Under the pieces are notes generated by a model. It was not told the DNA's origin. It did no database searches and was given only the letters and a program-made list of their open reading frames with translations. The translations under genes and the position numbers were made by a program. A DNA stretch of 61,908 nucleotides, the filler included, from Candidatus Delongbacteria bacterium (GTDB lineage Bacteria > UBA4055), in assembly GCA_016937995.1 (NCBI GenBank). It is 6 parts of 6 records of this genome, joined end to end, with 100 filler letters (N's around TTAATTAATTAA, not from the genome) between each part and the next. Parts side by side here need not be neighbours in the genome. Positions count along the whole stretch, not along the records: positions 32,318 to 46,447 come from JAFGVM010000062.1; 5 more parts are not named here. The stretch is one strand, 5' to 3'. Position 1 is the first letter of the stretch, and the number at the start of each line of letters is the position of its first letter. This document shows, piece by piece, positions 4,560-60,901 of the stretch.

Positions 4560-4665
4560 ATGTTCAAAATTTTTGATTTTGCTTATATTAAAATTTATGT
4601 AAAATAATTTTTTATTTTTACGTAAAATGAATATAATACCCTGAACTTCTTATGGGGCAAACGGA

Positions 4666-17588: not shown

Positions 17589-17680
17589 AGATCTTCCTGC
17601 TAATTATTTTTTATAAATTAGATATTTAAATTAGAATAATCAATGAGTTTTTTTGAATGGATTAAACAACGATCATTTAA

Positions 17681-17781
17681 CGTATTTCGTAGGGGAGTCC
17701 TTCCACGGTCTCCCGCTTCTGTTTTATATGCAAAATAATCCCAAAGCGGGAAGGCGTAGAAGCCTTCCCCTACGAAATACG
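17681..17781. repeat. REPIN-like inverted pair of GTAG-type REP sequences
   Basis: Perfect 16-bp inverted repeat CGTATTTCGTAGGGGA/TCCCCTACGAAATACG and inner TCCCGCTT/AAGCGGGA. Confidence 0.7.
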
Positions 17782-17853
17782 ATCAATAAAAAAGGGCGTC
17801 CGCAAACACCCCAATTCTCAATTGTAGAGGGCTACTTACAACTTACTACTGCC

Positions 17854-32317: not shown

Positions 32318-32325
32318 CACACATA

Positions 32326-32409
32326 CCCATAACATTGGCAAAACATCAATGGGTTACTTGGATATTTGACTCGCTTAACACCACTGCTTTTTGCCATGAC
32401 CGTTGTGGG
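32326..32409. repeat. attC-like palindromic junction site 1 (84 bp)
   Basis: CCCATAAC-ATTGGCAAAA...TTTTGCCATGACC-GTTGTGGG. Confidence 0.75.
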
Positions 32410-32492
32410 CAATGTGTAATTTGGAAAAACTGATAATACCGGCATATTAAACAGAATAATTAGAAATATAGTCAAATGTAAATTTTATACAT

Positions 32493-33002
32493 TTATTTTT
32501 TTTCTACAATAAGTTTCTTGTGCTTATATACAATTCTGATAAATTCTTTTAATTCTTCTGATTGAGAATCTTTAAAGAATTTCTCTATACTCTTATTGGG
32601 TAAATAGATATAAGCTTTTGCAAAATCTAACTCATATAAACTAATCCCATCTAAAATGAATTTAAATCTTAGATCTACATCATCGGTTTTCTCAAATCCT
32701 TTTTTATAGTACTTATTCAGATAAAACATTTCTATCTCGGATTGAGCTATTTCTTTTAATTGCTCAAACATATCTGAATATGTATTCTTAAAGATAATCT
32801 TTAAATCTTCATCACAATTGAACTTAGTTTTTTTCAAAATAGAGAATTTGTTATCTCTATCTGAATTTGCGATCATTATTTCTCCACTCAATCCTTTTAA
32901 TTCTTTTGAATCATACTTGCCTTTAACAGATAAAAATACGAATACCGTATTGAACAACGATTTGTGATAAAGAATCCTGTATTGGTCTCTTTTATTTGCC
33001 AT
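32493..33002 (-). CDS. Hypothetical protein
   Basis: 169-aa ORF overlapping the end of the upstream frame; GAGG RBS. Confidence 0.7.
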   Translation of the reverse strand: MANKRDQYRILYHKSLFNTVFVFLSVKGKYDSKELKGLSGEIMIANSDRDNKFSILKKTKFNCDEDLKIIFKNTYSDMFEQLKEIAQSEIEMFYLNKYYKKGFEKTDDVDLRFKFILDGISLYELDFAKAYIYLPNKSIEKFFKDSQSEELKEFIRIVYKHKKLIVEKK

Positions 33003-35097
33003 TTACTACCTCACTTTTTTTAATTATTTCTTTCGAACTATTTATGCCTACGACATAATAGAATTTTTTATTTTGTGTTATTGTTGATGTCCAAGTCGTG
33101 TCATTAAAGCTACCACTTGTATCCAATGTGAAATTATTGTACGGGTCATCTGAAGAATATACCTGATAACTATCTGCTCCAGTCACAGAGTTCCAAACCA
33201 GTGTAGTACTCTCAGCTAAATGTTCAATTGAAATTATATTGGGTGCAGACATGTCATCCGATAATATTATAGGATTTCCCGTACTTACAACCTCAGGCTC
33301 AAATCCATACAAAATTGCATTTGCTTTATTATCAAGTATAATTTCGGCATTCCCTTCATATCCAGTTGATGTCTGCATTGCTTTTATATGTAAAGTATTC
33401 CCACTTGTCCAGCTTGTTACGAAATTCCCAAGATTTGCGATTATTACCATTTTTCCGTCAATAATTTCAAGCTTTGAATCTGAATTCGAATCTTTCGATT
33501 GAATCTCATCGGGTCTGCTCTTTATATAGACATCAAATTCTATATCATTTGTATCAATCAGTTCTGTACTGTCATTCGCCTGTAAATGACATATGACTTT
33601 TCTAGGAGTATTCAAAGCTGAAACACTTGATTTTACTTTCTGTAGCTGTTCTTTCTGTTTTGAGTAAATATTATTATCAGGTGGCCACATTTGATCCTGA
33701 TCAACATTCACCATATAGGCATTTGCAACATAGGTATTGTAAACATTATTCCATGATGTACTGTAATCCGAAATATCAAATGATTGGTTTGTTGAATTCC
33801 ATGTAATTACAGAATCACATCCTTGAATACTATCCCCTATTATTTCAGTTGTTGAAAAGTGCGGTTTATTGAATGGCAGCATAACAAGATTCATTCCTGT
33901 TTTCAGGCTAAATACAGCTTGTTCTTCGATATAACCCAATGAAACAAATGAAAAAGAACTATCAGCATTTATAAGATAAGGTTTACTTTCGTCTATATAG
34001 AAATTGTCAATATTTCCAATTTCTGTTAGTGAACTTGTTACCCATATTTTCTCTATATTATCCCAGTAACTTACAGATTCTATCTCTGAATATTTACTAA
34101 TTAAATCACCTGCCTGTGTTAAATCTTCGCCTGAACATAAATTTACTGCTTAAGAAGGTACAGCTAGCCAATTTATTCCTTCCAAACAATCATATTTAAT
34201 TATAGTAACTATATCGCTATAAGTTGTGTCTGCATTAACAATTTCTTGGAGTTTATAAAATTTTCTTGAGGAGGTTACGGATGTACTCCAATTTGTATTG
34301 GAACCACTATATTCAAGAGTCCAGCTACTAAAATCCTGTTCGGGATTATCTGAACTATATAAATTATAGGATGAAGATTTGGCTACACTTGAATAATCGA
34401 AATGAAAATCTACATTACTTCCATTTTCCTCAGGGCTTAAAGAAGTTTTTCGTACAGTTGAATAATTATTGTCGAAGAACTTTGTCAATCCGTTATTTAT
34501 ATAAGTGGCTACCTGTTGCGAACCGATAATTCCTCCTCCGAAAACCATCTGATTCCATCCGTCAATTTCACTTATATAATATGGCTCTACTAAACATACT
34601 GGTATATTTTTACTAGGATCGACAGAGTTCAATACCTCTAAACCTCCTCTCTGACTTATTCCGAAATTAGTAAACCCAATTTTCAATAACTCATGATGTA
34701 TTGCATATGCTAAACTATAACTAATCCACGGTCGGTAATAAATTGTTTTAGTTCCCTGAACCCATGCCCAACTGTTGCTATTAAAATGAATACTAACTGC
34801 TGCATCTGGCTCATATGTATTAATCATTATAGCTCTGTCTCCGTTATCAACATGAGCATCAGTAGTTCTAGTCATTATTACAGTAGCAAGTAAGCTGAGT
34901 AAATTAGTTCGTAGCGTTAAGCCTACCTGTAAATTGATATCTGCTTCATCTGGGTATTCTGTTCCATTTCTACCTAATGCACCTCGGTTTCCAGGTCCTC
35001 CATGTCCAGGGTCTATCAGAATTGTCTGAAACATAACACCCTGAGAAAAAATCAACCCAGTAACAAAAAATACGAGTATGAAAATATAATTCTTCAT
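32992..35097 (-). pseudogene. Secreted N-acetylmuramoyl-L-alanine amidase (Amidase_3) with surface domains, interrupted by an in-frame TAA
   Basis: IDPGHGG, EADIN, SIHFNS and CLVE motifs. ORFs 34150-35097 and 32992-33939 share a frame; the 70 intervening codons are open and the only stop is TAA at 34150-52. Confidence 0.8.
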
Positions 35098-35116
35098 TTT
35101 ACTGCTCCCATTACTT

Positions 35117-36097
35117 TCATAACTTAATCAAATAAATATTCCCGTCATTCATTTCGTAGTACAAAATCATTTTATTATTTGGTGACAGAGTTGGTGAGTA
35201 TTCAAGTTTGTCACTTGTATTTGTTATCTGCTTGAACTTTTTTGAATTAATATCAAATATTGCTATATCGTAGTTTTCAATACTATAATGATTATCTTCT
35301 TCCAAACAGAAAATAATTTTAGTATCATCAAAGCTCCAAGTTGGATTACTACAACTTAATTTCTCATCAAATGGGTGTTTATATTCGCTTTTAATTTTTT
35401 TCTCAATATCCCAAAAACATATTTGATTATAATCTTTGAAAACAATATTATTTTTATTGTATGAAATTTTCGCTGTTACTAGGCTTAATTTAATTTCATC
35501 ACGAATTTCTCCATTCTCATCAATATATTTATCTCCATCAGGTGTTAGTGATACAACAATTCGGTTTTTTTCTTTATTATTCAGTAAATGTGAGTATTCA
35601 CTATTAATTGGTAATATTTTTGATTCGTATTTATAGTTTTTTCTATCAAAAGCTGCAATATACTGCCCCGTTTCAGAATACATCCAAATTGGACTTGTTA
35701 ACCAATCAGATTGAAAAAGTCTTTCAATTGAATAATCTTCAATATTTATGACTGAAATTGATGAAGTCTTTATTCCTTCAATTCTATCTCTAGCAAGAAA
35801 AGCAATGTATTTACTGTCTACAGACCATGTAACAGAATTATAAGTTGTTGCAATATTTAAATTACCAATTTTCTTAAATGCTTTGCCTTTCATATCAGAT
35901 ATATAGATAGAGCCATTTCTTATATACGAGATATATTTACCGTCAGGTGAAAATTTTGGATGTTGGTATGGGTTTTCTTGCGTTCCATCTTTTGTTAATT
36001 GGATACTGCTATATTTTTTAGTATTTACCCCACAACCAGTTATAATTATGCTGATAATTATTGCAAACAGATATAATTTTTTTAAAATTCTAAGCAT
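35117..36097 (-). CDS. TolB-like (PD40) beta-propeller lipoprotein
   Basis: Lipobox ITGC; PKFSPDGKYI, PTWSFDD and PTLSPNN repeats. Confidence 0.85.
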   Translation of the reverse strand: MLRILKKLYLFAIIISIIITGCGVNTKKYSSIQLTKDGTQENPYQHPKFSPDGKYISYIRNGSIYISDMKGKAFKKIGNLNIATTYNSVTWSVDSKYIAFLARDRIEGIKTSSISVINIEDYSIERLFQSDWLTSPIWMYSETGQYIAAFDRKNYKYESKILPINSEYSHLLNNKEKNRIVVSLTPDGDKYIDENGEIRDEIKLSLVTAKISYNKNNIVFKDYNQICFWDIEKKIKSEYKHPFDEKLSCSNPTWSFDDTKIIFCLEEDNHYSIENYDIAIFDINSKKFKQITNTSDKLEYSPTLSPNNKMILYYEMNDGNIYLIKL

Positions 36098-36315
36098 AGC
36101 CCCTTTTTTATTGCTTCTTTATCATGAAAATTACAATAAAACAATATACTGAATATTTTCTTTTTAGTCAATATTTCAAAAATAAATAATTATATGATTT
36201 GACCTGTATTCTTTGCTTGAATAAAGGAACAGAATTTCATATTATTAGGTATGTTATCGATTAATATAAAAATAGATATGCCGGTATTATGAGAAACAGA
36301 GAAATTACACACAGA

Positions 36316-36387
36316 CCCACAACATGGGAAAAATGACACGGCGAGGGGAATGTTATTTGCCGCTCTTTTTTCCCTATCCGTTGTGGG
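36316..36387. repeat. attC-like palindromic junction site 2 (72 bp)
   Basis: CCCACAAC-ATGGGAAAAA...CGGCGA..TTGCCG...TTTTTCCCTATCC-GTTGTGGG. Confidence 0.8.
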
Positions 36388-36582
36388 AAATAGTAATCAG
36401 GAATTCTTGTGGGGGGGGGGAGTCATCTAGAAAAATATGGGATTAATGGTAAATAGAAACATAATAATTTCGTTTGAAAAGGTTAAATTAGGGATTATCT
36501 TTCTGCAATAGGTCAATTCGAAATAAAAATGAGTTTTTATGGAGTTTAGATCAGGTTTTAAATTAAAATATGGAGTTGTGTG

Positions 36583-37425
36583 ATGAATCGTATTTTATAC
36601 TTGTTTGTTCTTGTTTGTTTCACTTTTGGTTATTCAAAAACAATCTACGGTGAATATACTTACACCTACGGAGATGACGAAACTCTGACGACCGCAAAGC
36701 AAAAATGCCAAACTTTAGCCAAAAGAGACGCCGTCGAAAAATTCGCAACTTATATCACAAGTGAAACTGTCATCAGAAATTATCAGACGGAAAGCGACGA
36801 AATAATAGCTAACACAGAAGCTATGATAACAGATGTAAAAACTGTCGAAGAACGAATAGACAAGTCAAATACCACCATTTATTACAAAGTAAGCGCGGAA
36901 GTTGACGAAGAAAAGATCCTCGCGGTGTATAATGAAAGAGAGCGTATAAGGCTCGAGAAGATCGAAGCAGAAAGAAAACTGCAGGCAGACAAACTCGAAG
37001 CTGAAAGGAAAGCAGAAGCCGCCAGAATAGAAGCCGAGAGAAAGGCGCAGGAATTAAAACTTAAAGCCGAAAAGGAAGCTCTGGAAGCCAAACTAAAACA
37101 TGAAAAAGAAATGGCTTCAATAGAACAGGAAACTGAAAAACTTAAACTTTCGCGAGAAATAAATGAGAAGGACAGAAGATTCTGGAAAACTCAAAAATGG
37201 ATTGCGCTCGGAGCATTTGCAGGATCAGCAGCCCTCGGTACCTATTTCAATTTTCAGGGCTCGTCAAATTACGACGACTATAAATCTGCAACAACGACAG
37301 CATCGGCGGATGACCTTTATGATAAAGCTGAAAGCAATTATCTTTACCGGGATGTAACATTCAGCGTATCCGTTCTACCGCTCGGATATTTTTTCTACGC
37401 ATGGTATAAAGAAAGTCAGTATTAA
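36583..37425 (+). CDS. Exported hypothetical protein with coiled-coil linker and hydrophobic C-terminal domain
   Basis: Signal peptide, E/K/A-rich helical segment, aromatic-rich C-terminus. Confidence 0.8.
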   Translation: MNRILYLFVLVCFTFGYSKTIYGEYTYTYGDDETLTTAKQKCQTLAKRDAVEKFATYITSETVIRNYQTESDEIIANTEAMITDVKTVEERIDKSNTTIYYKVSAEVDEEKILAVYNERERIRLEKIEAERKLQADKLEAERKAEAARIEAERKAQELKLKAEKEALEAKLKHEKEMASIEQETEKLKLSREINEKDRRFWKTQKWIALGAFAGSAALGTYFNFQGSSNYDDYKSATTTASADDLYDKAESNYLYRDVTFSVSVLPLGYFFYAWYKESQY

Positions 37426-37443
37426 AAGGAAAGGAAAAGTAAA

Positions 37444-40400
37444 ATGAAAAAATTCTTAGGACTAATAACAATAATAACAGCATTCATAATAATCTGGGCA
37501 TGCTCAGACCTTGAACATTCTAATCCATTTGATTCAAGCTACGGCGATCCGGCTCAGTTAACAAAGCTTGACCTTACGATAGAAAAAATAGACCGCATAA
37601 AGCTCGTCTGGGATGATGATTACTACAGCAAAGATTCAAATTACACTTTCCAGATCGACAGAAAAGTCGGCGAATCCGGCACATGGCAGGAAAAGTATAA
37701 AATATTCAAAAGCAATACTACTTTTTTCACAGACTCGGCAGCAGGCATTAATCAGATGAATTACTACAGAGTAAAAGTGGCTTACGATGAAAATATATCA
37801 GAACCGATTGAGGCCGGAGTGAACAACCCGTTTAATCCGCCGTCAAATATTATAACAAATCGCAAAGACATTCGTACGATTCAGATAAGTTGGGCTGACA
37901 ATTCAAACGGAGAAGATGGCTTCAGGATAGACAGATTTTCTGCAGGTGTCTGGCATGACGGATTTAAGACTGTAGGTCAGAACATAGCATCATGGACTGA
38001 TTCTTCAGCCGTTCTTAACGACAGCATCAGATATAGAGTATGCGGATTTAGAAAAACTTATTCATCTCTTTCAGTCGCAACCCAACTGATAGATAATTTA
38101 GTTCCGGCGCCTTCTAATCTTACAATAAAGCAGAACGATGTCAGCACTTTTGAATTGAACTGGGCAGACAACAGCATAGGCGAAGAAGGCTTTATCATTC
38201 AGAGGAGCATTGACGGAGGCGCATACAGTCAGATAGCGTCTTTACAGGCTAATACAACTACCTATACAGATAATTCGGTCAGCAAGAACAAAAGCCTGAG
38301 CGATGTCAGCTACAGAGTTATGTCTTTTTATGGTACATATCAATCCGATTATGCTGAAACGGCATCAGAAATTGATTTTCCAGCACCGGGTTCGATATCG
38401 TATGAAAAACTTTCAATTTCATCTATAAAGCTGAACTGGTCGGATAACAGCCTTGCAGAAACAGGTTTCAAGATCGAAAAGAAGATCGGGGCCGGCAGCT
38501 GGGCTGAGTATGCGACCGTCGGGGCGAACATAACGACTTGGACTGATACGGCAGCCGAGATAAATCAGAATCTGCAGTACAGGATCTATGGCTATAAAGG
38601 AACGAATACATCTCCGGTAACTGAAAGCTCTGTGATAGATAATGCTTTTCCTGCTCCGTCATCTATAACATATACGAAGATCTCCATTTCTTCGTTAAAA
38701 ATTGACTGGCTCGACAATTCAGTCGGTGAAGACGGCTTTAAGATAGACAGATCTGTTGACGGTACATGGACTACTGCTTATGCAACCGTTGCAGGCAATA
38801 TAAAAACTTATACAGACAGCAACGCTCCGATCAATAAAACCGTTATTTACCGTGTTTACGCATACAAATCATCAAGTGTGTCGGCTTCTGTTTCCACTTT
38901 GTCGATAAACAATACTTTTCCGGCACCTACAAATCCTATTATAACACAGCTTGCTGTCAATTCAGTAAAAATTGACTGGACAGATAATTCTACAGGCGAA
39001 GACGGGTTTAAGATTGATAAAAAGAGCACTACAGGTGTCTGGACTACGGCTTTTGCTTCTGTCGGTGCGAGTATCACAACTTATACAGATACCGCAGCTG
39101 CAATCTCAGACAGCCTGCAATACAGAATTTACGGTTATAAAGGAACAACATATTCAACTTACGCTTATACAAGCGCATCCGACCTTACATTTCCGCCGCC
39201 GACAAATGTAACAGACAGCAGCGTGAGCATTATTTCAATAAAATTGAACTGGGCTGATAACAGCACAGGCGAAACAGGTTTTAAAATTGACAGGTCGGTT
39301 GACGGTGGTGCGTGGGGAATCGCCTATGGTACAGTCGGCGAGAATGTCGTTACATGGACTGATGCCAACGCTCCGATAAATAAAAATATTCAGTACAGAA
39401 TTTACGGTTATACTGCAACTGACGCATCAAGCTATGCTTACTCAAATACGATCGCCAATACTTTTCCGGCTCCGGTTCTAAATACTGTTACTCAACAAAC
39501 AGTAAGCTCTTTCAAGCTTGACTGGTCGGACAATTCAACCGGCGAGGAAGGATTCAAAATCGAGAGAAAAATTGATGATGGTACTTATGCTCAGATAGCT
39601 TCTGTCGGGGCGAATGTAATTACATATACCGACAGCTCGATTAATAAAAAAGGCTACACTACTGTTTACTACAGGATTAGAGCGTTCAAAGGAACTGATT
39701 ATTCAGTTTACAGTGAAAAGACGCAGTTAATTTCTTTTCCTGCACCGACGAATATAAATTATACAAAAACAAGCATCAGTTCTATAACCGTAACTTGGGC
39801 TGACAATTCAAACGGCGAAGACGGTTTCAAGATAGATAAAAAAGTAGGATCTTCTGAATGGATATTAACCTACGGTACCGCATCTGCAAATGCAGTATCT
39901 TGGCTTGATTCAAATGCTGAGCCGAACACATCAATTCAATATAGAGTATATGCCTACAAAGGCAGCAACTCATCAACTGCAAACTACAGCGCAACAATTG
40001 ACAATACATTCCCTGCTCCGCTGAATATTTCAACCGAAAAGCTGACAATATCGTCTATCAAGGTCAATTGGACAGACAATTCAACAGGCGAAACAGGCTT
40101 CATAGTTGACAGAAAAATAGGCGTTGACAGCTGGGCAGCTTACGATACAACCGCGGCAAACGCAGTAACATGGACTGACAATAACGCAGTTATAAATGTA
40201 AATTTACAATACAGGATCAAAGGTTATAAAGACAGCTACTATTCTAATTATCTTGAATCATCTCAGATAAGCAATATCTTCCCGGCTCCCACTAACCTTA
40301 CACTGACTCAGGTAAAATCCAAAACAAAAGCCACTTCAATAAAACTGGACTGGACTGATAATTCCAATGGAGAAGACGGGTTCAAAATCTCAAAAAAAGA

Positions 40401-42180
40401 CGAAGTAGGCAACTGGAATGATCTTTATACTGTCGGAAGCAACATAAAAACATGGACTGATACGAACGCAACGATAAGCGATAGCCTTGCTTACCGAGTA
40501 AAAGGATATAAAGGAACATACTCATCCGGTTACACAACAGCCGATGTAAGCGCTCTAACCTTTCCGCCGCCATCGAATCTCACCTTCACGAAAATAGACT
40601 TGAACTCGATAAGGCTAAATTGGACTGATAACTCAACCGGCGAAGACGGCTTCAAAATTGACAAAAAAATCGGTGACGCAGCTTGGACAGTAGCTTATGG
40701 AACAGTAGCTGTAAACGCAGTAACTTGGACAGACGACAATGCAGATGTAAACCAAAATCTGCAATATAGAGTTTATAGCTATTCAGGACCATTCGTATCC
40801 AATTTTGTAGAAACAACTCTAATTGACAATACTTTCCCTGCTCCGACAAACCTAACAACAACTCAAGCTAGCATAACTACGGCAACAATCGCATGGACTG
40901 ACAACAGCACCGGAGAAGAAAAATTCGAGATCGAAAGAAAATTATCAGCCGATGCAACATATCTAAAAGTAGGCGAAGTGATCGGCAGTGCCACGACGAC
41001 AAAAACATATTCAGATACTACCGTCGTTCCAACAAATACATACGATTACAGAGTAAAAGGAGTATTAGGAACAAATTCATCAGCTTACATAACGAAAACA
41101 GGATATGAAAACATTTTCCCAGCTCCTACGAATCTCGCAGCTACTGTCGAATCCGAAACCTCAATAAAACTCGCTTGGACTGACAATTCTATAGGAGAAG
41201 AAGGTTTTAAAATTGACAGAAAAGTCGGCAGTGCAGGCACATGGACGACTGATTATGCAACAGTAGGATCAAATGAAATTGAATTTACTGACACTGGGCT
41301 CACAGCAGGAATAATATATTATTACAAAGTAAGAGGGTACTGTATTTCAACTTACAGCTATTATACTAACGAAGCGACCAAATTTATTCCTGATATGTCA
41401 GGATTTGTTTTAATACCTATTGGTAATTTTAATATGGGTCAATCGGGGATTGCTAGCGCTGAACCTGAACATATTGTAAATATTACAAAAGAATATTATT
41501 TATCCAAGACCGAATTAACTCAAAAAGAATGGGCTGATATTATGGGTACTAATCCAGCGAGTGGTTATGGTATTGGTGATAATTTCCCAGTCTATTCAGT
41601 CAGCTGGTATTCGGCACTTGTATATTGCAATAAAAGAAGCATCGCTGATGGGCTTTCACCATGTTATAGTATTAGTGGATCAACTGATCCAGCAACTTGG
41701 GGTTCAATTCCCGCTAGCTGGAATACAACTTGGAACGCTGTTGTTTGTGATTTCGATGCTAAAGGATATCGTATCCCTACTGAAGCGGAATGGGAATATG
41801 CTGCACAGCACAATGATAACAGAACATTCCCATGGGGAGAAACTGAGCCTACAAACAGTTACTGCAATTTTAGTAATTATGTCGGAGAAACTACTATTGT
41901 TGGTAATTATCCAAGTGGAAATAATAGCCTTGGCCTTTCCGACATGGCAGGAAATGTAGAAGAATGGGTGTGGGATTGGTATAACTATCCGTACCCAAGC
42001 TCAGAACAAATTGATCCAACAGGACCAGTCGAACCGATAGTTGAACAAGAAGTTAAAATCGCACGTGGCGGAAATTGGGGTGCGAGCCCAAGCCTTGTTG
42101 TCAAATGCGCACAAAGAAGAACGCTTGATCCTTTCTTTGCATCAATAGACACGGGACTGAGAATTGCGAGGACGAAATAA
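37444..42180 (+). CDS. Large lipoprotein: 14 FN3 repeats + C-terminal FGE-sulfatase (SUMF1, C-type lectin fold) domain
   Basis: Lipobox IWAC; 13 W.DNS..E..F repeats plus one degenerate copy; YRIPTEAEWEYAA, DMAGNVEEW and RGGNW motifs. Confidence 0.9.
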   Translation: MKKFLGLITIITAFIIIWACSDLEHSNPFDSSYGDPAQLTKLDLTIEKIDRIKLVWDDDYYSKDSNYTFQIDRKVGESGTWQEKYKIFKSNTTFFTDSAAGINQMNYYRVKVAYDENISEPIEAGVNNPFNPPSNIITNRKDIRTIQISWADNSNGEDGFRIDRFSAGVWHDGFKTVGQNIASWTDSSAVLNDSIRYRVCGFRKTYSSLSVATQLIDNLVPAPSNLTIKQNDVSTFELNWADNSIGEEGFIIQRSIDGGAYSQIASLQANTTTYTDNSVSKNKSLSDVSYRVMSFYGTYQSDYAETASEIDFPAPGSISYEKLSISSIKLNWSDNSLAETGFKIEKKIGAGSWAEYATVGANITTWTDTAAEINQNLQYRIYGYKGTNTSPVTESSVIDNAFPAPSSITYTKISISSLKIDWLDNSVGEDGFKIDRSVDGTWTTAYATVAGNIKTYTDSNAPINKTVIYRVYAYKSSSVSASVSTLSINNTFPAPTNPIITQLAVNSVKIDWTDNSTGEDGFKIDKKSTTGVWTTAFASVGASITTYTDTAAAISDSLQYRIYGYKGTTYSTYAYTSASDLTFPPPTNVTDSSVSIISIKLNWADNSTGETGFKIDRSVDGGAWGIAYGTVGENVVTWTDANAPINKNIQYRIYGYTATDASSYAYSNTIANTFPAPVLNTVTQQTVSSFKLDWSDNSTGEEGFKIERKIDDGTYAQIASVGANVITYTDSSINKKGYTTVYYRIRAFKGTDYSVYSEKTQLISFPAPTNINYTKTSISSITVTWADNSNGEDGFKIDKKVGSSEWILTYGTASANAVSWLDSNAEPNTSIQYRVYAYKGSNSSTANYSATIDNTFPAPLNISTEKLTISSIKVNWTDNSTGETGFIVDRKIGVDSWAAYDTTAANAVTWTDNNAVINVNLQYRIKGYKDSYYSNYLESSQISNIFPAPTNLTLTQVKSKTKATSIKLDWTDNSNGEDGFKISKKDEVGNWNDLYTVGSNIKTWTDTNATISDSLAYRVKGYKGTYSSGYTTADVSALTFPPPSNLTFTKIDLNSIRLNWTDNSTGEDGFKIDKKIGDAAWTVAYGTVAVNAVTWTDDNADVNQNLQYRVYSYSGPFVSNFVETTLIDNTFPAPTNLTTTQASITTATIAWTDNSTGEEKFEIERKLSADATYLKVGEVIGSATTTKTYSDTTVVPTNTYDYRVKGVLGTNSSAYITKTGYENIFPAPTNLAATVESETSIKLAWTDNSIGEEGFKIDRKVGSAGTWTTDYATVGSNEIEFTDTGLTAGIIYYYKVRGYCISTYSYYTNEATKFIPDMSGFVLIPIGNFNMGQSGIASAEPEHIVNITKEYYLSKTELTQKEWADIMGTNPASGYGIGDNFPVYSVSWYSALVYCNKRSIADGLSPCYSISGSTDPATWGSIPASWNTTWNAVVCDFDAKGYRIPTEAEWEYAAQHNDNRTFPWGETEPTNSYCNFSNYVGETTIVGNYPSGNNSLGLSDMAGNVEEWVWDWYNYPYPSSEQIDPTGPVEPIVEQEVKIARGGNWGASPSLVVKCAQRRTLDPFFASIDTGLRIARTK

Positions 42181-42226
42181 TACATAGAAGATAAATAATT
42201 TCTGTAAATTAAATTATAAGGAATAT

Positions 42227-43120
42227 ATGGAATTTCCTAAAAGAGTCGAACAACATATAACTGAAACCAGCAGTTTCAAAATATTCAATAGTGCGATCCC
42301 TAATTCTTGGATTGTAAGAGAAATTTCTGAAAGAGATTATGGTATTGATTGCTATATTGAATTAGTTGATTCAAACAATCAAGTTACTGGAGAATTAATT
42401 TCAATTCAATTAAAAGGGATGCAATCAATTACTTGGACTAAGGAAAACTATTATACTCTATCGGGAATTAAGCTTTCGACAACAAATTACTGGCGATTTT
42501 TTCCAATACCAGTGTTTATTTGTTTAGTTGATCTAAACTCTAAAGAAATATTTTTTAATGCTGCTAAGGAATCGATCAGAAGAGATTTTTTAACATATTC
42601 AAACCAAGATGTTTTTTCTTATAAAATTGAGAAAAAGTGCAAATTATCAATAAGTAATATTCCCAATTTCATACACTCATACTATAAGGAAAAACTTCAT
42701 AATGAGCTACAAATAAATATCATAACATTTATTTCTCATTATCACAAATATCGCAATTTTATTGAAGAGAATATCGGGAACGATTGTTTCATGGGGATCG
42801 AAAAAAGTAGGTTGTTTTATATGAAACACTTATATAATAATACAGAATTTCTTTGTAAATATTTTCAAATTCCGTGGGATCTCAAATGCTTTGATGAATA
42901 TATTAAAATCAGTCAATCAAGGTATGGCAATAATTATTGTTTATATGAAGAACAATTCGAAGAAATATCTTTAAAATTAAATGAATTATTAGCTCCTGTA
43001 ATTCTAAGAATTAAAAATCATATAACGGTAGAGGAAAAAGAATATTGGGCAAAAAATGATTTTGATTTATATAATTATTTGTTCTTAGTTAAGTCAAACG
43101 GAGAAATAGATGCATGGTAA
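42227..43120 (+). CDS. DUF4365-type PD-(D/E)xK nuclease-like protein
   Basis: W..RE..E.DYGID..IEL...TG....IQLK pattern. Confidence 0.8.
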   Translation: MEFPKRVEQHITETSSFKIFNSAIPNSWIVREISERDYGIDCYIELVDSNNQVTGELISIQLKGMQSITWTKENYYTLSGIKLSTTNYWRFFPIPVFICLVDLNSKEIFFNAAKESIRRDFLTYSNQDVFSYKIEKKCKLSISNIPNFIHSYYKEKLHNELQINIITFISHYHKYRNFIEENIGNDCFMGIEKSRLFYMKHLYNNTEFLCKYFQIPWDLKCFDEYIKISQSRYGNNYCLYEEQFEEISLKLNELLAPVILRIKNHITVEEKEYWAKNDFDLYNYLFLVKSNGEIDAW

Positions 43121-43202
43121 CTGATAAAAAGATTTTTTTAGAATGATTTGCTATAATATGATATTCTACCAATATTCCATAATAGTATAAGGAAGGAGTA
43201 AT

Positions 43203-44213
43203 ATGAATGATGTTGAAAAATTGGTAGCTTTCAATAATGTTAGAAGTTACTTGAATCAAGAAGACCAAAAATATTTATTATCAAAGCTTTCTATCGATCA
43301 GACTAATTTAACTCATCGACTTAGGGGGCTTAATGTACAAAATGAATTCTTCACAATCCAACATTTGCTTGGATCTTGTAATGATATTCTTTCGTTTGAT
43401 GAAAGTACTTCTGTCTTGACTAAATCATATTCGCCTGATTCTTGTTTGGTTCTCAAAAACAATCAGAAAATGTTTGTTGAAATTAAGAGCAAAGATGAAT
43501 TTGAATTTAAAATAAGTGGAGGGAATCTTCAAAAACGAATTGATTTTGCAAATAATTTTGGGTATAAGCTTTATTTTGCTGTTAAACTTAAAAGTTTTTG
43601 GGGGCTATATTCGAGCGAATATTTGAAATCAAAGAACGGTAAATTAAAATTTCCAGAGGACTATTTAAATTCTGAATTTGAAACAATGTTTGGTAGCAAA
43701 TTAATAATATTACCAAAAGGTATTAAAGTTAAAAGTTTTTACTCTAAAACAGAAGATAGTTTAATGCAAATTAGGCACGAAAATTTTGGCAATCTTTACA
43801 AGTATCAATTTTTTTTCAATGACAATTTAATCTTTGATATAAATAAATCTAATGAAAATGAAGCAGCCATTAGTATAATTTTAGAAGCTCTACACAATGA
43901 AATGTCAAATCAATCACAAAACATCGAAGATTTGGGCAATGGAGAGACCTTAATAACTGAAATGTTAACGGACAATACTTTTTTCTACGATTATAGTTTT
44001 CTGTTAGCTCCCATAAATCACGCTCAATCTGATTTGGGATTTATTATGGACAATACATCTTTTTTTAAATATATCGTTCAACAAAAAGGAAAGTCACCTG
44101 TAACGAAAGATTCACTTTATAGGATATTGGATTTTTTGCATAAAAAAGGCATAACGATAATTATATCTAAATTAATCGAACAAAAAGGGGACTTTGTTGA
44201 AAAAATATTATAA
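43203..44213 (+). CDS. Putative PD-(D/E)xK nuclease-fold protein
   Basis: SPD...FVEIK motif. Confidence 0.6.
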   Translation: MNDVEKLVAFNNVRSYLNQEDQKYLLSKLSIDQTNLTHRLRGLNVQNEFFTIQHLLGSCNDILSFDESTSVLTKSYSPDSCLVLKNNQKMFVEIKSKDEFEFKISGGNLQKRIDFANNFGYKLYFAVKLKSFWGLYSSEYLKSKNGKLKFPEDYLNSEFETMFGSKLIILPKGIKVKSFYSKTEDSLMQIRHENFGNLYKYQFFFNDNLIFDINKSNENEAAISIILEALHNEMSNQSQNIEDLGNGETLITEMLTDNTFFYDYSFLLAPINHAQSDLGFIMDNTSFFKYIVQQKGKSPVTKDSLYRILDFLHKKGITIIISKLIEQKGDFVEKIL

Positions 44214-44428
44214 ATACAAAGTATTTCTTCCATAAAATAGATATCATTTCACTCAATTTAAATTAATTTTGAAATACATGAAAAAAACAAACTCAATAAT
44301 CCTTTTCAAACAGAAACTCAAAACAGAGGCGTACGAAAAAATCGTACATCTGAATATTACAAAGTATTTTTATATGAACAAAATTTAAGTATTCAAATAG
44401 AATTAGAAAACTAACATCGGAATTTATT

Positions 44429-46078
44429 ATGCCAGATCAGAATTTGCACGAATTATTGACCGACCTCATCCAAACATGGGAAAACGAGGTTATTGAGTTT
44501 AAGGAAGTGAATGATAACTTTCCGACTTCGGATATCGGGAAGTATTTTTCCGCTTTATCGAATGAAGCGAACTTGAGAGATAAAGAGCATGCTTGGCTTG
44601 TATTCGGCGTTAATAATAAAATGAGGAAAATTGTCGGTACTGATTACAGAAATGAGGCTGACAGACTTCAAAGCTTGAAAATGCAGATCTCACAGAATAC
44701 TGAACCGAGTATTACATTTAGAAATATTCACGAAGTGACTGTTGAAGGTCACAGAGTGGTTTTATTAGAAATTCCTTCCGCACCGGTTGGTATTCCTATC
44801 TCTTGGAACGGACATTACTATTCCCGTTCAGGTGAAAGTTTGGTTTCTCTCGGATTAGACAAGCTTGATGAGATCAGGAATCAGACTTCGGCATCTGACT
44901 GGACGGCTAAAGTTATTGATGAAGCTACGCTTGAGCATCTTGATCCGGAAGCGATTGAAAAAGCACGGGAGGCTTATGCGAAAAAGTATTCGAACCGTTT
45001 TACTGATTCCGAGATTAAAAAATGGTCTGTTCCCGTTTTTCTCGACAGAGCAAGATTAACTTTATCCGGTAAGATCACGAGAAGCACTTTAATACTTCTC
45101 GGTAAAAAAGAATCCTCTCATTTACTTCTACCTTATCCTGCTCAGATTACTTGGAAGCTCGTGGATAAAGTCAAAGCTTATGAACATTTCGCACCGCCTT
45201 TTTTATTGAGTACTTCTGAGCTTTATCTGAAGATAAGAAACTATCAGATCAGAATTCTGCCGGAAAATAGCCTAATTCCCGTAGAAGTTTCAAAATATGA
45301 CAGAAAAGTCGTCCTCGAAGCTCTTCATAACTGCATCGCGCATCAGGATTATACAAAGAATGCCCGAATCCTTGTAACTGAGCATCAGGATAAGTTAACA
45401 TTTGAGAACGACGGCGGATTCTATGAGGGTAGTCCGGATGATTACATAACAGGCGATAAAACACCTCGCCATTACCGCAATTCATTTCTCGCTCAAGCTA
45501 TGTCAGAACTGAATATGATAGACACAATGGGATACGGTATTCACCAAATGAACACTGTTCAGGCGAAAAGATATTTCCCTTTACCCGATTACGATCTTTC
45601 AGAAAAAGGTGTTGTTAAATTAACCATTCACGGCAAAGTATTTGATCCGGAATACAGTAAACTGCTCATACAGAATCAGGATCTTTCTTTAGAGGATATT
45701 ATTGCTTTGGACAGAGTACAGAAACTGCTTCCTTTGACTGATGAAATGATTAAAAGGTTGAGAAAGGCACAGCTTATTGAAGGCAGAAAGCCGAATTTTC
45801 ACATATCGTTGAAAGTAGCTACGGTGGCAGACAGAAAAGCTGAATATATAAAAACTAAAGGTTTTGATGACGCTTATTGTAAAGACCTGATCCTTGAGTA
45901 CATAAGAAAGTGGGGAGAAATATCACGCAAACAGGCAGAGGATTTACTTTGGGATAAGCTACCTGACATACTTGATGACAAAGCTAAATTCGTTAAGGTT
46001 ACAAACCTGTTGCAAAGCCTAAAAAAAGAAGGTAAGATAGTATTGGGTAAAGCAAAAAAATGGAAATTGAATTTATGA
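44429..46078 (+). CDS. AlbA_2/Schlafen domain + HATPase_c_4 + C-terminal winged-helix protein
   Basis: ENEVIEFKE, SALSN, LVFGV, EALHNCIAHQDY, YRN and GYGI motifs. Confidence 0.88.
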   Translation: MPDQNLHELLTDLIQTWENEVIEFKEVNDNFPTSDIGKYFSALSNEANLRDKEHAWLVFGVNNKMRKIVGTDYRNEADRLQSLKMQISQNTEPSITFRNIHEVTVEGHRVVLLEIPSAPVGIPISWNGHYYSRSGESLVSLGLDKLDEIRNQTSASDWTAKVIDEATLEHLDPEAIEKAREAYAKKYSNRFTDSEIKKWSVPVFLDRARLTLSGKITRSTLILLGKKESSHLLLPYPAQITWKLVDKVKAYEHFAPPFLLSTSELYLKIRNYQIRILPENSLIPVEVSKYDRKVVLEALHNCIAHQDYTKNARILVTEHQDKLTFENDGGFYEGSPDDYITGDKTPRHYRNSFLAQAMSELNMIDTMGYGIHQMNTVQAKRYFPLPDYDLSEKGVVKLTIHGKVFDPEYSKLLIQNQDLSLEDIIALDRVQKLLPLTDEMIKRLRKAQLIEGRKPNFHISLKVATVADRKAEYIKTKGFDDAYCKDLILEYIRKWGEISRKQAEDLLWDKLPDILDDKAKFVKVTNLLQSLKKEGKIVLGKAKKWKLNL

Positions 46079-46159
46079 GAACTTATGAGAACTCTTATGC
46101 GTACTACTTCACATTTTGTAGCTAAAAATTATGAGAACTTTATGAGAACTTATGAGAAG
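46073..46159 (+). repeat. Cluster of TTATGAGAAC decamers
   Basis: Perfect copies at 46073, 46083, 46129 and 46140; variants at 46095 and 46150. Confidence 0.85.
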
Positions 46160-46312
46160 TATGAAAGAATCGTACAACTGCAGAAAGATAATCCCAAAAT
46201 AAAACTCGAACCATTGGAGCGCGAATTAAATAAAGCTAAAAAGTGTATAAAGTACTCGGAGATAAGTAAATGAGAAGACTCCCCCCCCCATATAGTGACT
46301 GATTACTACTAT

Positions 46313-46384
46313 CCCACAACATTGGAAAAATGACACGGCGAGGGGAATGTTATTTGCCGCGCTTTTTTCCATGACCGTTGTGGG
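46313..46384. repeat. attC-like palindromic junction site 3 (72 bp)
   Basis: CCCACAAC-ATTGGAAAAA...TTTTTCCATGACC-GTTGTGGG; near-identical to site 2. Confidence 0.8.
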
Positions 46385-46447
46385 AAATAGTAATCAGTAA
46401 TTCTTGTAGGGTTTATTGAGCTTTCTTTATAATTCTGCCACCGGCGG

Positions 46448-58818: not shown

Positions 58819-58865
58819 TAAACACCTCATTGTATGATGACATGAATAATATAAGTACAAACCGA

Positions 58866-58946
58866 AGAAAAGTCAAGGCATATAACCGATTAAAACGCAG
58901 AAAAGTCAAGGCAGACAAACAATCAATTCAAAGAATAGTCAAGGCA
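58866..58946. repeat. Three 15-bp direct repeats (AGAAWAGTCAAGGCA) with 33-bp period
   Basis: Copies start at 58866, 58899 and 58932, upstream of the ATPase. Confidence 0.85.
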
Positions 58947-58966
58947 AAAAAACGAATTAATTAGGG

Positions 58967-60901
58967 TCACTTTATCGCACCCCGGTGCTTTAATATATAC
59001 TTCGATCTGTCTTTAGGGCTGACACCTCTGTAAGGAATGGTCTTTCCTAGCTCGAGCGGGACTTCCTGATAACCGTGGAAGTGAGTAATATACTTTCCTT
59101 TGCCGCCTGTGATTGAATTAAGTGTATTGAGATAATCCAAGGATGTTGCGACTGGGATCTTTCCATCTATGACAATTTTCCCATCAACATTCTCAGGCGT
59201 ACCAATCTCAGCTCTGATAGCTATAAGACTGCTGATGATCTTGCCGGAAGATTCTTCAGGAGCTGATATTTTAAACGACAGCACTGGTTCGAGCAATTTG
59301 CAGCCTGTATTAATTAGTCCGTTCATCATCGCAAGTTTCGTAGCAAGAATAAAATCTCCGGGACGGGAATGAATTACATGATCTTCTTCACCGATCAGAG
59401 TTATTTTCAGATCAGTGACCTGCCAGCCGTAGATACCCTGTTGAAGTGCTTCATCTATTGTAGCCTCTATCTCATTCTGATACTTTGCGGCTATTTTATC
59501 AACTCCTACTTTTGATTCATAGACAACTCCGCTTCCCCGTTCTAAAGGCTCAATTTCAAATCTGACAACAGCCCAGCACGGTTTAGGCATTGTATACTCA
59601 TCGTAGCCTTCGCCTTTTTGCGTCGGAGTTTCTTTATAAATGACGATCGGATCTCCGAAGCTAACACTCAAATTAAATCTCTGCCTGAATACTGTCTCAA
59701 GTATCTCAAGCTGGATCTTTCCCATGATCTTAATATGAAGTTGTCTCTCATCCTTAAGCCAAACATAGTTGAGTGCCGGATCTTCCTCCGAAAGCTCTTT
59801 CACTGCAGTAACAAGTGCTGAAAGATCAGAGTCTTTTTCCGGTTCAAGTTTTACGGTAAGCAAAGGATCGCTGAGACCTGTATGTTTACATAGTTCAATT
59901 CTCTTCAAGAGTTCCGGATCAGAACCGATCATATCACCCGCAATGACATTTTCAAGACCGCAGATCATAGCAGTATCACCTGACTGTAGGATATCTAAAG
60001 TCTCAAGCTTGCCTGAATAGGATTTTTTTATCTGAGTAACTTTATTTTCTTTTCCCTGTGAACCATAAGTAACAAGATCTCTGTTCCTGATCGAGCCACT
60101 GAAAAGCCTTACACTTGCCATTTTACCAAATTGAGCGTCATATTCAAGCTTGTAAACTATACCAGAAAGTTCATTGCTTTTCGCGGATGCTTCCGGCATT
60201 ATAGTCGTGATATCATCGAGTAATTCTTTAATACCTTCGTTAAGCTTTGCTGAGCCTGACAGAACAGGAAATAAAATCCTGCTGTGAATACTTTTTTTTA
60301 AGGCTGTATTTAGCTCAGAGAAAGAAATATTCTCTTCATTTAAGTATTTCTCTATCAGAATATCATCAGCTGAAGAAATTTGTTCAGTAATTTCATCGGA
60401 GATATCGTCAGTCTCTGAAAAATCCTGCAAAACAATAATATTCTGAGATAATTCTTTCTTTATTTCTTCTGTGACTGCATCAATATCAGCACCGGCACGA
60501 TCGGTTTTATTTATAAAAATTAAAACAGGTATATTAAGCTTTACCAATGCAGACCAGAGATTTTCAGTATGTGCCTGAACACCTTCTACTGCTGAAATAA
60601 CTAATACAGCGCAATCTAAGGCTAATAATGATCGATCAACTTCTGATGAAAAATCGATGTGCCCCGGAGTATCAATTATATTTATCGTTGTATTATTCCA
60701 TTCCAGAGAAACTGAAGCTGAACGGACTGAGATACCACGCTCTTTCTCAACTTCCATTGAATCTGTTACGGAAGTACCTTTATCAACTGAACCTGCCGTT
60801 TTTATCCTGCCTGAAAGTTCAAGCATCCTTTCTGTAATAGTGGTTTTCCCTGCATCAACATGCGCAAGGATACCTATGTTAATGAATTTGTTTTTTTTCA
60901 T
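58967..60901 (-). CDS. TetM/TetW/TetO-like ribosomal protection family GTPase
   Basis: NIGILAHVDAGKTT, ERGIS, DTPGH and NKTD motifs; 644 aa with EF-G-like domains. Confidence 0.85.
   Translation of the reverse strand: MKKNKFINIGILAHVDAGKTTITERMLELSGRIKTAGSVDKGTSVTDSMEVEKERGISVRSASVSLEWNNTTINIIDTPGHIDFSSEVDRSLLALDCAVLVISAVEGVQAHTENLWSALVKLNIPVLIFINKTDRAGADIDAVTEEIKKELSQNIIVLQDFSETDDISDEITEQISSADDILIEKYLNEENISFSELNTALKKSIHSRILFPVLSGSAKLNEGIKELLDDITTIMPEASAKSNELSGIVYKLEYDAQFGKMASVRLFSGSIRNRDLVTYGSQGKENKVTQIKKSYSGKLETLDILQSGDTAMICGLENVIAGDMIGSDPELLKRIELCKHTGLSDPLLTVKLEPEKDSDLSALVTAVKELSEEDPALNYVWLKDERQLHIKIMGKIQLEILETVFRQRFNLSVSFGDPIVIYKETPTQKGEGYDEYTMPKPCWAVVRFEIEPLERGSGVVYESKVGVDKIAAKYQNEIEATIDEALQQGIYGWQVTDLKITLIGEEDHVIHSRPGDFILATKLAMMNGLINTGCKLLEPVLSFKISAPEESSGKIISSLIAIRAEIGTPENVDGKIVIDGKIPVATSLDYLNTLNSITGGKGKYITHFHGYQEVPLELGKTIPYRGVSPKDRSKYILKHRGAIK

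Follow-up and report, generated by a model that had tools for sequence, protein, structure and literature searches.

A probable fragment of an integron-type gene-cassette array with two large multigene cassettes in an uncultured low-GC anaerobe

The attC sites of integrons follow the consensus RYYYAAC in the R'' box and GTTRRRY in the R' box, and, to our knowledge, the AAC and GTT triplets are their only strictly conserved bases. Their structural marks include an unpaired central spacer, on the bottom strand a G after AAC, and extrahelical bases on the R''-L'' arm, by which the choice of strand is set; the VCR sites of Vibrio cholerae are longer and have a branched terminal structure (both PMC2727003). 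Since attC sequence and structure are kept within a taxon, a dedicated covariance model recovers a whole family; according to Ghaly et al. (2021, PMC8352920), 11 taxa have been modeled, i.e., six gammaproteobacterial orders, Acidobacteria, Cyanobacteria, Deltaproteobacteria, Planctomycetes, and Spirochaetes. Clusters of attC sites without an integrase are called CALINs and are delimited as two or more attC sites that share a strand, lie within 4 kb, and have no integrase nearby (Cury et al. 2016, PMC4889954); the same source puts the "largest known cassette" at roughly 2 kb. In a preprint (bioRxiv 10.64898/2026.03.17.712381), capture efficiency drops with cassette size, and a 4-kb V. cholerae cassette, which includes an IS, was not mobilized and never recovered.

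The window, i.e., the whole stretch of DNA analyzed here (61.9 kb), consists of six contigs joined by N spacers, and the contig under study occupies positions 32318–46447 (14.1 kb). We consider this contig, with a probability of about 80%, to be a fragment of an integron-type gene-cassette array, a CALIN on this contig, from an uncultured anaerobe of low GC content that has type IX secretion. The three structured palindromes that were predicted originally to divide the contig into modules of about 3.98 and 10.0 kb are indeed found there, all co-oriented on the plus strand, with start-to-start spacings of 3990 and 9997 nt (Table 1). The contig begins 8 nt ahead of site 1 and ends 63 nt past site 3. 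Site 1 (core of 74 nt) is part of an unseen upstream cassette, and its loop variant differs from that of sites 2 and 3 and is the same as one in the public locus L001.

Table 1. Sites, cassettes, end arms, and genes of the contig (positions along the window)
Feature	Position	Strand	Remarks
attC-type site 1	32326..32409	+	R'' box ends in AAC (from 32331), R' box opens with GTT (ends 32404)
Cassette 1	32410..36315	genes on -	3916 nt from GTT to next AAC; GC 0.30
Cassette 1 start arm	32410..32447	+	inverted repeat of 36276-36315
ORF, 169 aa	32493..33002	-	no family found in family search
ORF, 315 aa	32992..33939	-	no family found in family search
N-acetylmuramoyl-L-alanine amidase (Amidase_3), 315 aa	34150..35097	-	E 1.5e-26
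PD40/TolB-like beta-propeller protein, 326 aa	35117..36097	-	Pfam scan
Cassette 1 end arm	36276..36315	+	complementary to 32410-32447
attC-type site 2	36316..36387	+	AAC from 36321, GTT ends 36382
Cassette 2	36388..46312	+	9935 nt from GTT to next AAC; six genes on plus strand
Cassette 2 start arm	36388..36424	+	G10 tract 36411-36420; inverted repeat of 46277-46312
ORF, 281 aa	36580..37425	+	no family found in family search
1578-aa protein, fn3-like repeats and FGE-sulfatase-type domain	37444..42180	+	
DUF4365 protein, 297 aa, restriction-endonuclease-like	42227..43120	+	weak match to pAgo-associated REase model
336-aa protein, Hjc-like PD-(D/E)XK nuclease domain	43203..44213	+	weak match
Schlafen AlbA_2 and HATPase_c_4 protein, 549 aa	44429..46078	+	
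ORF, 62 aa	46085..46273	+	no family found in family search
Cassette 2 end arm	46277..46312	+	C9 tract 46281-46289
attC-type site 3	46313..46384	+	AAC from 46318, GTT ends 46379
Third cassette, first 63 nt	46385..46447	+	stops at contig end

Chance does not remotely account for the sites: covariance-model E-values of the three in the window range from 4e-15 to 5e-21, and their DNA folding z-scores from -2.1 to -5.7. A search of the 61.9 kb with filters off gave nothing else better than E ~1, reverse-strand self-hits aside, and the other 47 kb of the window contain no site by the covariance model. The assembly does break at the sites, as noted originally: two Logan contigs of the probable source run, 3953 and 9989 nt long, match the two modules and terminate within the sites, and further loop variants of the site are present in the source and sister runs, where contigs again break within sites.

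As had been anticipated, further copies exist elsewhere. A covariance model of the site (R1), for which 13 copies were used, recovers 35 sites, spread over the window (3) and eight public loci: L007 (9), L003 (5), L004 (5), L006 (4), L005 (3), L001 (3), L009 (2), and L008 (1). Within each locus, every site lies on one strand. Exact-pattern scans found the family in only one of 185,579 species genomes (the MAG G001) and in seven metagenome contigs. In the 13 aligned copies, compensatory changes occur at 6 of 19 predicted pairs, and both the R and L stems are backed by covariation. The R box comprises AAC/GTT and 5 bp; next come an asymmetric unpaired spacer (2 vs. 5 nt), the L box, and a loop that varies. 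The R stem runs on to approximately 20 bp and includes a 2x2 internal loop that is conserved. The terminal structure is variable (at least four unrelated loop variants; core of 60–76 nt, in one case 146 nt). Regular expressions locate AAC and GTT in 34/34 sites (the L008 site was left out), and AAC...GTT is all that is invariant across sites. The sequence GTTGTGG, initially regarded as a deviant core, turned out to be just the commonest of at least ten R' variants, others being GTTATGG, GTTAGGG, and GTTAGCT. All 34 sites have CCGTT, which was itself part of the search pattern; the C ahead of GTT implies that AAC is followed by G on the bottom strand. The fold of site 3 leaves one extra unpaired base on the arm formed by the complement of R''-L''. 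Pairing close to the loop is variable.

Of known systems, the cassette arrays of sedentary chromosomal integrons and CALINs come nearest. There, too, co-oriented AAC...GTT hairpins follow each cassette, the crossover is at GTT, sites are highly similar within a lineage, and most cassettes hold single promoterless-looking ORFs, toxin-antitoxin cassettes and some reversed ones among them; the lack of a nearby integrase is CALIN-like. With the Vibrio superintegron the family shares a lineage-specific, highly similar set of sites, toxin-antitoxin cassettes, and a chromosomal setting (L006 sits on a 319-kb contig). It differs from textbook attC in the shorter spacer (2/5 nt) and in that none of ten R' variants fits GTTRRRY exactly, only the triplets being kept. 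The R stem extends well beyond 7 bp, and the cassette ends pair over 20–46 nt rather than 7. As in the taxon-specific families of PMC8352920, sequence and structure are kept within the taxon, yet the present family belongs to none of the 11 taxa modeled there.

The flanks of the sites were decisive, and they give the position of the crossover. In every cassette (26 of 26), the 5 nt that follow GTT at the start pair perfectly with the 5 nt that precede AAC at the other end, and the match also holds in all 13 cassettes whose start differs from the majority GTGGG. Within a single site, the same complementarity is seen in only 9 of 34 cases, and it is absent from all 25 in which one box or the other departs from the majority. 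With arms of 25 nt, pairing scores average 11.5 within a cassette, 4.0 within a site, and 3.6 for other pairs (Mann–Whitney p 3e-8). Site 2 is a hybrid junction, its left flank pairing with the start of cassette 1 and its right flank with the end of cassette 2. Site 3 folds in place into a hairpin of approximately 100 nt, since its two flanks share one arm type. Given the cassette-wise pairing and the invariance of AAC...GTT alone, the crossover is placed at GTT, as in integron attC. By this comparison, the exchange is placed at G/TT of R', and the bases 3' of GTT are assigned to the next cassette; the proof is a clean comparative one and does without experiment. The palindromes are thus genuine attC-type recombination sites delimiting gene modules, as the original prediction held. 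Its suggestion of a new cassette system has to be given up, as the architecture (invariant AAC and GTT, R and L boxes, unpaired spacer, variable loop, crossover at GTT) is that of integron attC.

It is very improbable that the palindromes are merely dispersed repeats (REP/BIME, MITE), terminators, or small RNAs unrelated to cassette recombination. What speaks for such a reading is that, like MITEs and REP/BIME, they are short intergenic imperfect palindromes that break assemblies, that only three copies occur in 62 kb of the MAG, and that Rfam, which does not include the IntegronFinder attC model, has no match in the contig. Dispersed elements, however, lie in either orientation, with neither a switch of flank partner at a fixed GTT nor a packaging of one gene per interval. 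Here the arrays are strictly co-oriented, the orientation of sites is independent of that of genes, no T-run follows the stem at any of the three sites, and flank pairing changes partner exactly at GTT (26/26 vs. 9/34), which neither a terminator nor a MITE predicts. A MITE/REP element was rejected as a candidate, since copies are co-oriented per locus, sited between ORFs, and absent from the other 47 kb. An invertible segment or shufflon was rejected as well: the three cores repeat in direct orientation, inversion is confined to the outer arms, which pair cassette-wise, and no recombinase is present on the contig.

The four genes of cassette 1 are all reversed relative to the sites. In cassette 2, the arms (46 nt, 38 identities) enclose DNA with a GC content of 0.40 over the first 5.8 kb and 0.32 over the last 4.1 kb, and this step hints at a composite origin. 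Its 1578-aa protein contains approximately 13 tandem fn3-like repeats of roughly 270–280 nt and a C-terminal FGE-sulfatase-type domain, the latter 44% identical to a protein from an L006 cassette. The start of the third cassette resembles that of a caspase-domain cassette in L004.

The loci of relatives are dense co-oriented arrays in which intervals mostly contain one ORF in the site direction; 24 cassettes span 567–3206 nt, with a median of about 1.25 kb. Their cargo (HicA, HicB-like, ParE, GNAT, NUDIX, HAD, Mrr, a TehB-type methyltransferase, secreted proteins) is typical of chromosomal integrons, and T9SS tails were found on 8 of 45 proteins. Thus, the expectation of multigene, oppositely transcribed modules holds in the window (3.9 and 9.9 kb, one reversed) but not in the relatives, whose cassettes are mostly single-gene and co-oriented. 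Where cassettes are reversed, as some are in L004, L006, and the window, the site direction is retained, and so site orientation tracks the array, not the gene. The commonest relative cassette type has at its ends an interrupted inverted repeat of up to about 100 nt. Positions 1–193 of L007 are approximately 93% identical to the flank ahead of the first site of L006, and the two diverge right after GTTA. As foreseen, then, the cassette next to a shared one is not the same in all relatives, which shows that cassettes have been reassorted among them.

The window cassettes are 2x and 5x the size of the roughly 2-kb "largest known" one. It is quite possible, though not our preferred view, that the sites are true attC and that the modules arose when several cassettes fused as internal sites were lost, or when later insertions enlarged a cassette, and are now effectively fixed. 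Modules of 3.9 and 9.9 kb are out of the 0.57–3.2 kb range of the 24 relative cassettes, and the GC step in cassette 2 and its unrelated functions (a giant fn3/FGE surface protein, then three nuclease-like genes) are in line with fusion, as is the published fall of capture with size (bioRxiv 10.64898/2026.03.17.712381). Against this, neither module contains a relic site or half-site even with filters off, and in each of them start and end pair over 20–46 nt. Matched ends do not prove a single origin, since one arm type is common to several different cassettes (window cassettes 2 and 3, L003, L004), which again favors fusion. At the same time, a multigene stretch of at least 2.9 kb in L004 closes with the arm type of window cassettes 2 and 3, and hence large cassettes recur in the family.

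Returning to the integron-type reading, the recombinase was predicted to be encoded elsewhere, and the contig agrees with this. A Pfam scan of its ten main ORFs found no recombinase family, and tblastn of the window with two Xer-type recombinases of a related MAG gave nothing (best E 1.3). A point against the integron-type reading is that neither an integron integrase nor attI or a Pc promoter turned up in the window or the scanned ORFs of the relatives' loci, which are fragmentary DNA. For a complete integron (intI beside attI and an array), no example was found in these fragmentary sequences or in nine genomes, namely G001 and eight others of its phylum. In 9/9 of these genomes, from a phylum that may not be that of the window host, TIGR02249 stayed below cut-off; only Xer-like proteins of 291–315 aa are present, with matches skipping the IntI-specific middle segment. 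In V. cholerae, by contrast, cassettes are small and IntIA is known.

The same arrays might be run by a non-classical tyrosine recombinase, e.g., an Xer-like one, forming a parallel or divergent cassette platform. We regard this as unlikely: the absence of IntI over the NCBIfam cut-off, the R stem of up to ~20 bp with its 2x2 internal loop, and the 2/5-nt spacer speak for it, but all testable structural features match attC. The absence of IntI itself means little, because the relatives' loci are array interiors or short fragments, the MAGs are incomplete, and the window host may belong to a phylum other than that of G001.

For the integron-type array, we suggest that the palindrome, when single-stranded, folds into a hairpin (R box, asymmetric spacer, L box, variable loop) and that it is cut at GTT by a tyrosine recombinase whose gene lies elsewhere and which is most probably an integron integrase. 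With such a cut, the DNA that starts right behind one GTT and runs to the following one would be a single excisable, circularizable cassette, whose complementary end arms of 20–46 nt may lengthen the hairpin stem after excision. The large modules may still move as units, although their present mobility is doubtful, given their oversize and the fall of capture with size. A further proposal is an operon-moving platform, in which the long, cassette-specific end arms would zip the ends of a 4–10 kb cassette into one extended hairpin and lift the limit of ~2–4 kb known from classical integrons, using an enzyme that could be Xer-like and non-classical; we think it rather unlikely.

Sites 1 and 2, which share a strand and whose starts are 3.99 kb apart, form a CALIN, whereas site 3, located 10 kb further, falls outside it at the default threshold. 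The first gap is just under the 4-kb clustering distance of IntegronFinder and the second above it; default settings would thus split the array, and the cassettes exceed the size on which detection software is tuned. A full-text literature search gave no paper on integrons and Delongbacteria, nor on integron, attC, and Cloacimon*.

What is unusual here is that the two cassettes are so large and hold several genes each, that their ends pair over 20–46 nt, and that the host lineage is poorly known. Of interest to integron researchers are the attC family itself, given how little is known of its uncultured lineage, and the large cassettes with nuclease-rich, defense-like cargo. Should the large modules be shown to move, the accepted limit of integron cargo would need revision.

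The finding spans one entire contig among the six that make up the window, which are joined by N-TTAATTAATTAA-N spacers. The positions given for the three palindromes in the original prediction are correct. All three face the same way, and the contig starts 8 nt ahead of site 1 and ends 63 nt past site 3. Identity between sites 2 and 3 is 93% across 99 nt, while site 1 has only both ends in common with them, its centre being different and longer. Among the three sites, the end-adjacent stem carries a compensatory change (GGCAAAA/TTTTGCC vs. GGAAAAA/TTTTTCC), and folding of the sites as single-strand DNA yielded z-scores from -2.1 to -5.7. A search of the remaining 47 kb of the window with R1, a covariance model of the site family, with filters off, produced zero additional copies. 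The Rfam scan of the contig (E<=1) yielded a sole match, to a snoRNA, by chance. The predicted lack of a recombinase also held for the contig: no such family is found in its ten main ORFs, and tblastn with two Xer-type proteins had no match. Elsewhere, the window contains an inverted repeat, a short tandem array and a 644-aa EF-G-family GTPase; the best model for the latter is that of tetracycline ribosomal protection (568 bits, below the 775-bit cut-off), and the gene may encode a paralogue of EF-G instead of conferring resistance.

Coordinates of features in the window and in related loci (L003, L004, L007, and L009, metagenome contigs)
Feature	Sequence	Position (nt)	Strand	Remarks
Contig	window	32318-46447		14,130 nt, GC 0.35
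Site 1	window	32326-32409
Site 2	window	36316-36387
Site 3	window	46313-46384
Cassette 1	window	32410-36315	-	3.9 kb, four genes
Cassette 1 arms	window	32410-32447, 36276-36315		one arm type at both ends
Cassette 2	window	36388-46312	+	9.9 kb, six genes
Cassette 2 arms	window	36388-36424, 46277-46312		second arm type at both ends
Arm homopolymers	window	36411-36420, 46281-46289		G10 and C9
Tandem units of 1578-aa ORF	window	37886-41231		~13 units of 270-282 nt, 60-89% identical
Nuclease-type/defence-associated domains	window	42227-46078		DUF4365, Hjc-like, Schlafen AlbA_2
Nuclease-type/defence-associated domains	L004	3-2651		FRG, YhcG nuclease
Arms with G11 and C6	L003	between sites at 4632 and 1455
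Leader/trailer motifs, examples	L007	1084-1106, 2505-2537		
Stretch shared with L006	L007	1-193
Long-core site	L009	1148-1320		146-nt core
Inverted repeat	window	17675-17787		53-nt arms, 75% complementary, 7 nt between; inter-ORF, unrelated contig
Tandem array	window	58859-58957		three 33-nt units, 76-79% identity to reference copy; in 106-nt gap separating two minus-strand genes
EF-G-family GTPase	window	58967-60901	-

Further copies of the site, anticipated in the original prediction, do exist: R1 identified 35 in total in the window and its relatives, many of them missed by the exact pattern covering both site ends that was first run on species-representative genomes and then on metagenomes. 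That pattern had recovered one true copy in the genomes (L001, from an unclassified MAG, whose centre matches that of site 1) and seven metagenome contigs. A second genome-contig match (L002) is GC-rich coding sequence and was taken by eye as a chance match; two pattern scans of viral contigs produced 1 and 4 loci, none of which the covariance model recognised, so these are chance matches too. R1 was built from an alignment of 13 site copies; compensatory changes occur at 6 of the 19 pairs that RNAalifold predicts for it. The relative loci contain nine (L007, 12.9 kb), five (L003 and L004 each), four (L006), three (L005 and L001 each), two (L009), and one (L008) R1 sites, and within each locus the sites all lie on a single strand, arranged as arrays. 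The core of one L009 site is about twice the usual length with normal ends, i.e., its variable loop is expanded. The site-carrying MAG G001 (2.4 Mb, in small contigs) is the sole carrier among nine genomes of its phylum. The organism of the window has T9SS-tailed proteins, SelA, and GlmL-type genes; its SelA as a query had no match in that phylum, and its NuoF-like protein, with 58-62% identity in eight of the nine genomes, is uninformative on host placement.

In integrons, crossover occurs at G/TT of the R' box. Hence, the bases 3' of GTT belong to the next cassette, and their expected match is where that cassette ends rather than where their own site begins. AAC and GTT were located in 34 sites, the single site of L008 being excluded, and their flanks were compared. 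In all 26 cassettes, 13/13 of those with a non-majority start (other than GTGGG) included, the 5 nt 3' of GTT and the 5 nt that precede the next AAC are perfectly reverse-complementary. The two boxes of one site are perfectly complementary in 9/34 cases, and in none of 25 if either box is non-majority. For gapped 25-nt arms, the mean score was 11.5 within a cassette (n=26), 4.0 within a site (n=33), and 3.6 for all other pairs (n=1063), same-cassette scores exceeding same-site ones with Mann-Whitney p 3e-8; an ungapped comparison, with two GTT positions misplaced, agrees (12.6 vs. 7.3 of 20). Across sites, the only invariant bases are AAC and GTT. This invariance and the cassette-wise pairing put the exchange point at GTT, with the two halves of an outer stem belonging to one and the same cassette.

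The cassette-wise rule is also followed by the longer arms of the window. Each of its two cassettes has its own arm type (46-nt arms with 38 identities in cassette 2), and site 2 is a hybrid combining both types. Local alignment of 150-nt cassette ends was often no better than shuffles past the first ~20 nt, and long arms are asserted only for cassette 2 of the window, cassette 2 of L003, and the leader and trailer motifs described below. The arms of window cassette 2 carry homopolymers at mirror positions, and an unrelated L003 cassette has such tracts in its arms as well. The tracts may be prone to slippage, or they may contribute to the arm structure.

Elements common to attC sites are the R''-L'' and L'-R' arms, an unpaired central spacer, extrahelical bases on the R''-L'' arm, and a variable terminal structure, and in most sites the bottom strand has a G following AAC (Bouvier et al., 2009, PMC2727003). 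The sites studied here have an R box (AAC/GTT plus 5 bp), a spacer (2 vs. 5 nt), an L box that covaries and spans at least 6 bp, and a loop that varies between sites (core lengths 60-76 nt, one core being 146 nt). The C precedes GTT in 34/34 sites, CCGTT having been part of the regular expression that located them, and the single fold made for site 3 has one unpaired base on the expected arm. They differ from attC in that none of the R' variants exactly fits GTTRRRY, the spacer is short, and the cassette-wise stem runs at least 10 bp further, past a conserved 2x2 mismatch. No integrase, attI, or Pc promoter was found in the window or in the related loci, which are array interiors or short fragments. 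The recombinases of G001 are Xer-like proteins and fragments only, and none of the nine genomes of its phylum reached the TIGR02249 cut-off.

Inter-site intervals in the relatives usually contain a single ORF in the same direction as the sites, and the 24 complete cassettes are 567-3206 nt long. Their cargo includes toxin-antitoxin proteins (HicA toxin, HicB-like antitoxin, ParE toxin), enzymes (GNAT acetyltransferase, NUDIX and HAD hydrolases, Mrr endonuclease, methyltransferases), TPR proteins, FGE-sulfatase-domain proteins, and a caspase-domain protein; T9SS sorting tails are present in 8/45 cassette proteins. Two cassettes, each with a Hic-type gene, are reversed relative to the sites, as is cassette 1 of the window. 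A sigma-70 scan gave no evidence on cassette promoters (57 sites vs. 55 expected from shuffles). The commonest cassette type (L004, L005, L007, L008) has a conserved ~115-nt leader with GGTTTGTTTT and CATTGGCAC, and the inverse of these motifs directly follows the stop codon; all seven complete cassettes with the leader also have the trailer. Leader and trailer may together form a long interrupted terminal inverted repeat; alternatively, they may represent a promoter carried by the cassette or common ancestry of paralogous T9SS-cargo cassettes.

[quoted passage not shown] (2021, PMC8352920). Capture drops as cassette size rises, and a 4-kb V. cholerae cassette with an IS was not recovered (2026 preprint, 10.64898/2026.03.17.712381); excision is length-dependent for some site pairs (Loot et al., 2017, PMC5371416). 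Thus, the two multigene cassettes of the window are outliers relative to the sizes in the main text of these papers, whose supplementary size tables might list larger ones. An unfiltered R1 search revealed no relic sites inside either cassette. Cassette 2 has a GC step (0.40/0.32) and unrelated cargo, making its origin by fusion plausible. L004 likewise has multigene DNA (FRG, DUF1488, YhcG nuclease; 2.9 kb or more) that ends in the arm type of cassette 2.

The tandem units of the 1578-aa ORF encode fn3-like domains, N-terminal to a C-terminal FGE-sulfatase-type domain. Nuclease-type and defence-associated domains abound in the large cassettes, and the YhcG protein of L004 matches the PADLOC candidate PDC-S02 (E 2.5e-126). 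PADLOC matches of the window proteins were all weak and partial, and in the large cassettes of the window and L004 no known defence system was recognised in complete form. Defence genes in integron cassettes have recently been reported, and the domain content of the large cassettes is consistent with this.

Signs of reassortment were observed as well. L007 opens with 193 nt that share ~93% identity with the DNA ahead of the first L006 site, the metagenomes being different, and the two loci part directly after GTTA of that site. The two loci have either one cassette or one array edge in common, and different cassettes come after it. The probable source run and a sister run from its study were compared as assembled Logan contigs. 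Those of 3953 and 9989 nt correspond to the two window modules and end inside sites, and further contigs have site ends with other loop sequences, so additional site copies are present in the sample. Joints listed from the Logan contigs have sides of at most 38 nt within repeats and were given no weight.

The original observation stands, and its prediction of a recombination array was right in kind; the kind is an integron, not a new system. We are less confident that IntI is the acting enzyme, and likewise that the large modules are mobile at present, than we are of the array itself: with a probability of about four in five, the contig is part of an integron-type array, lacks an integrase and has two oversized cassettes.
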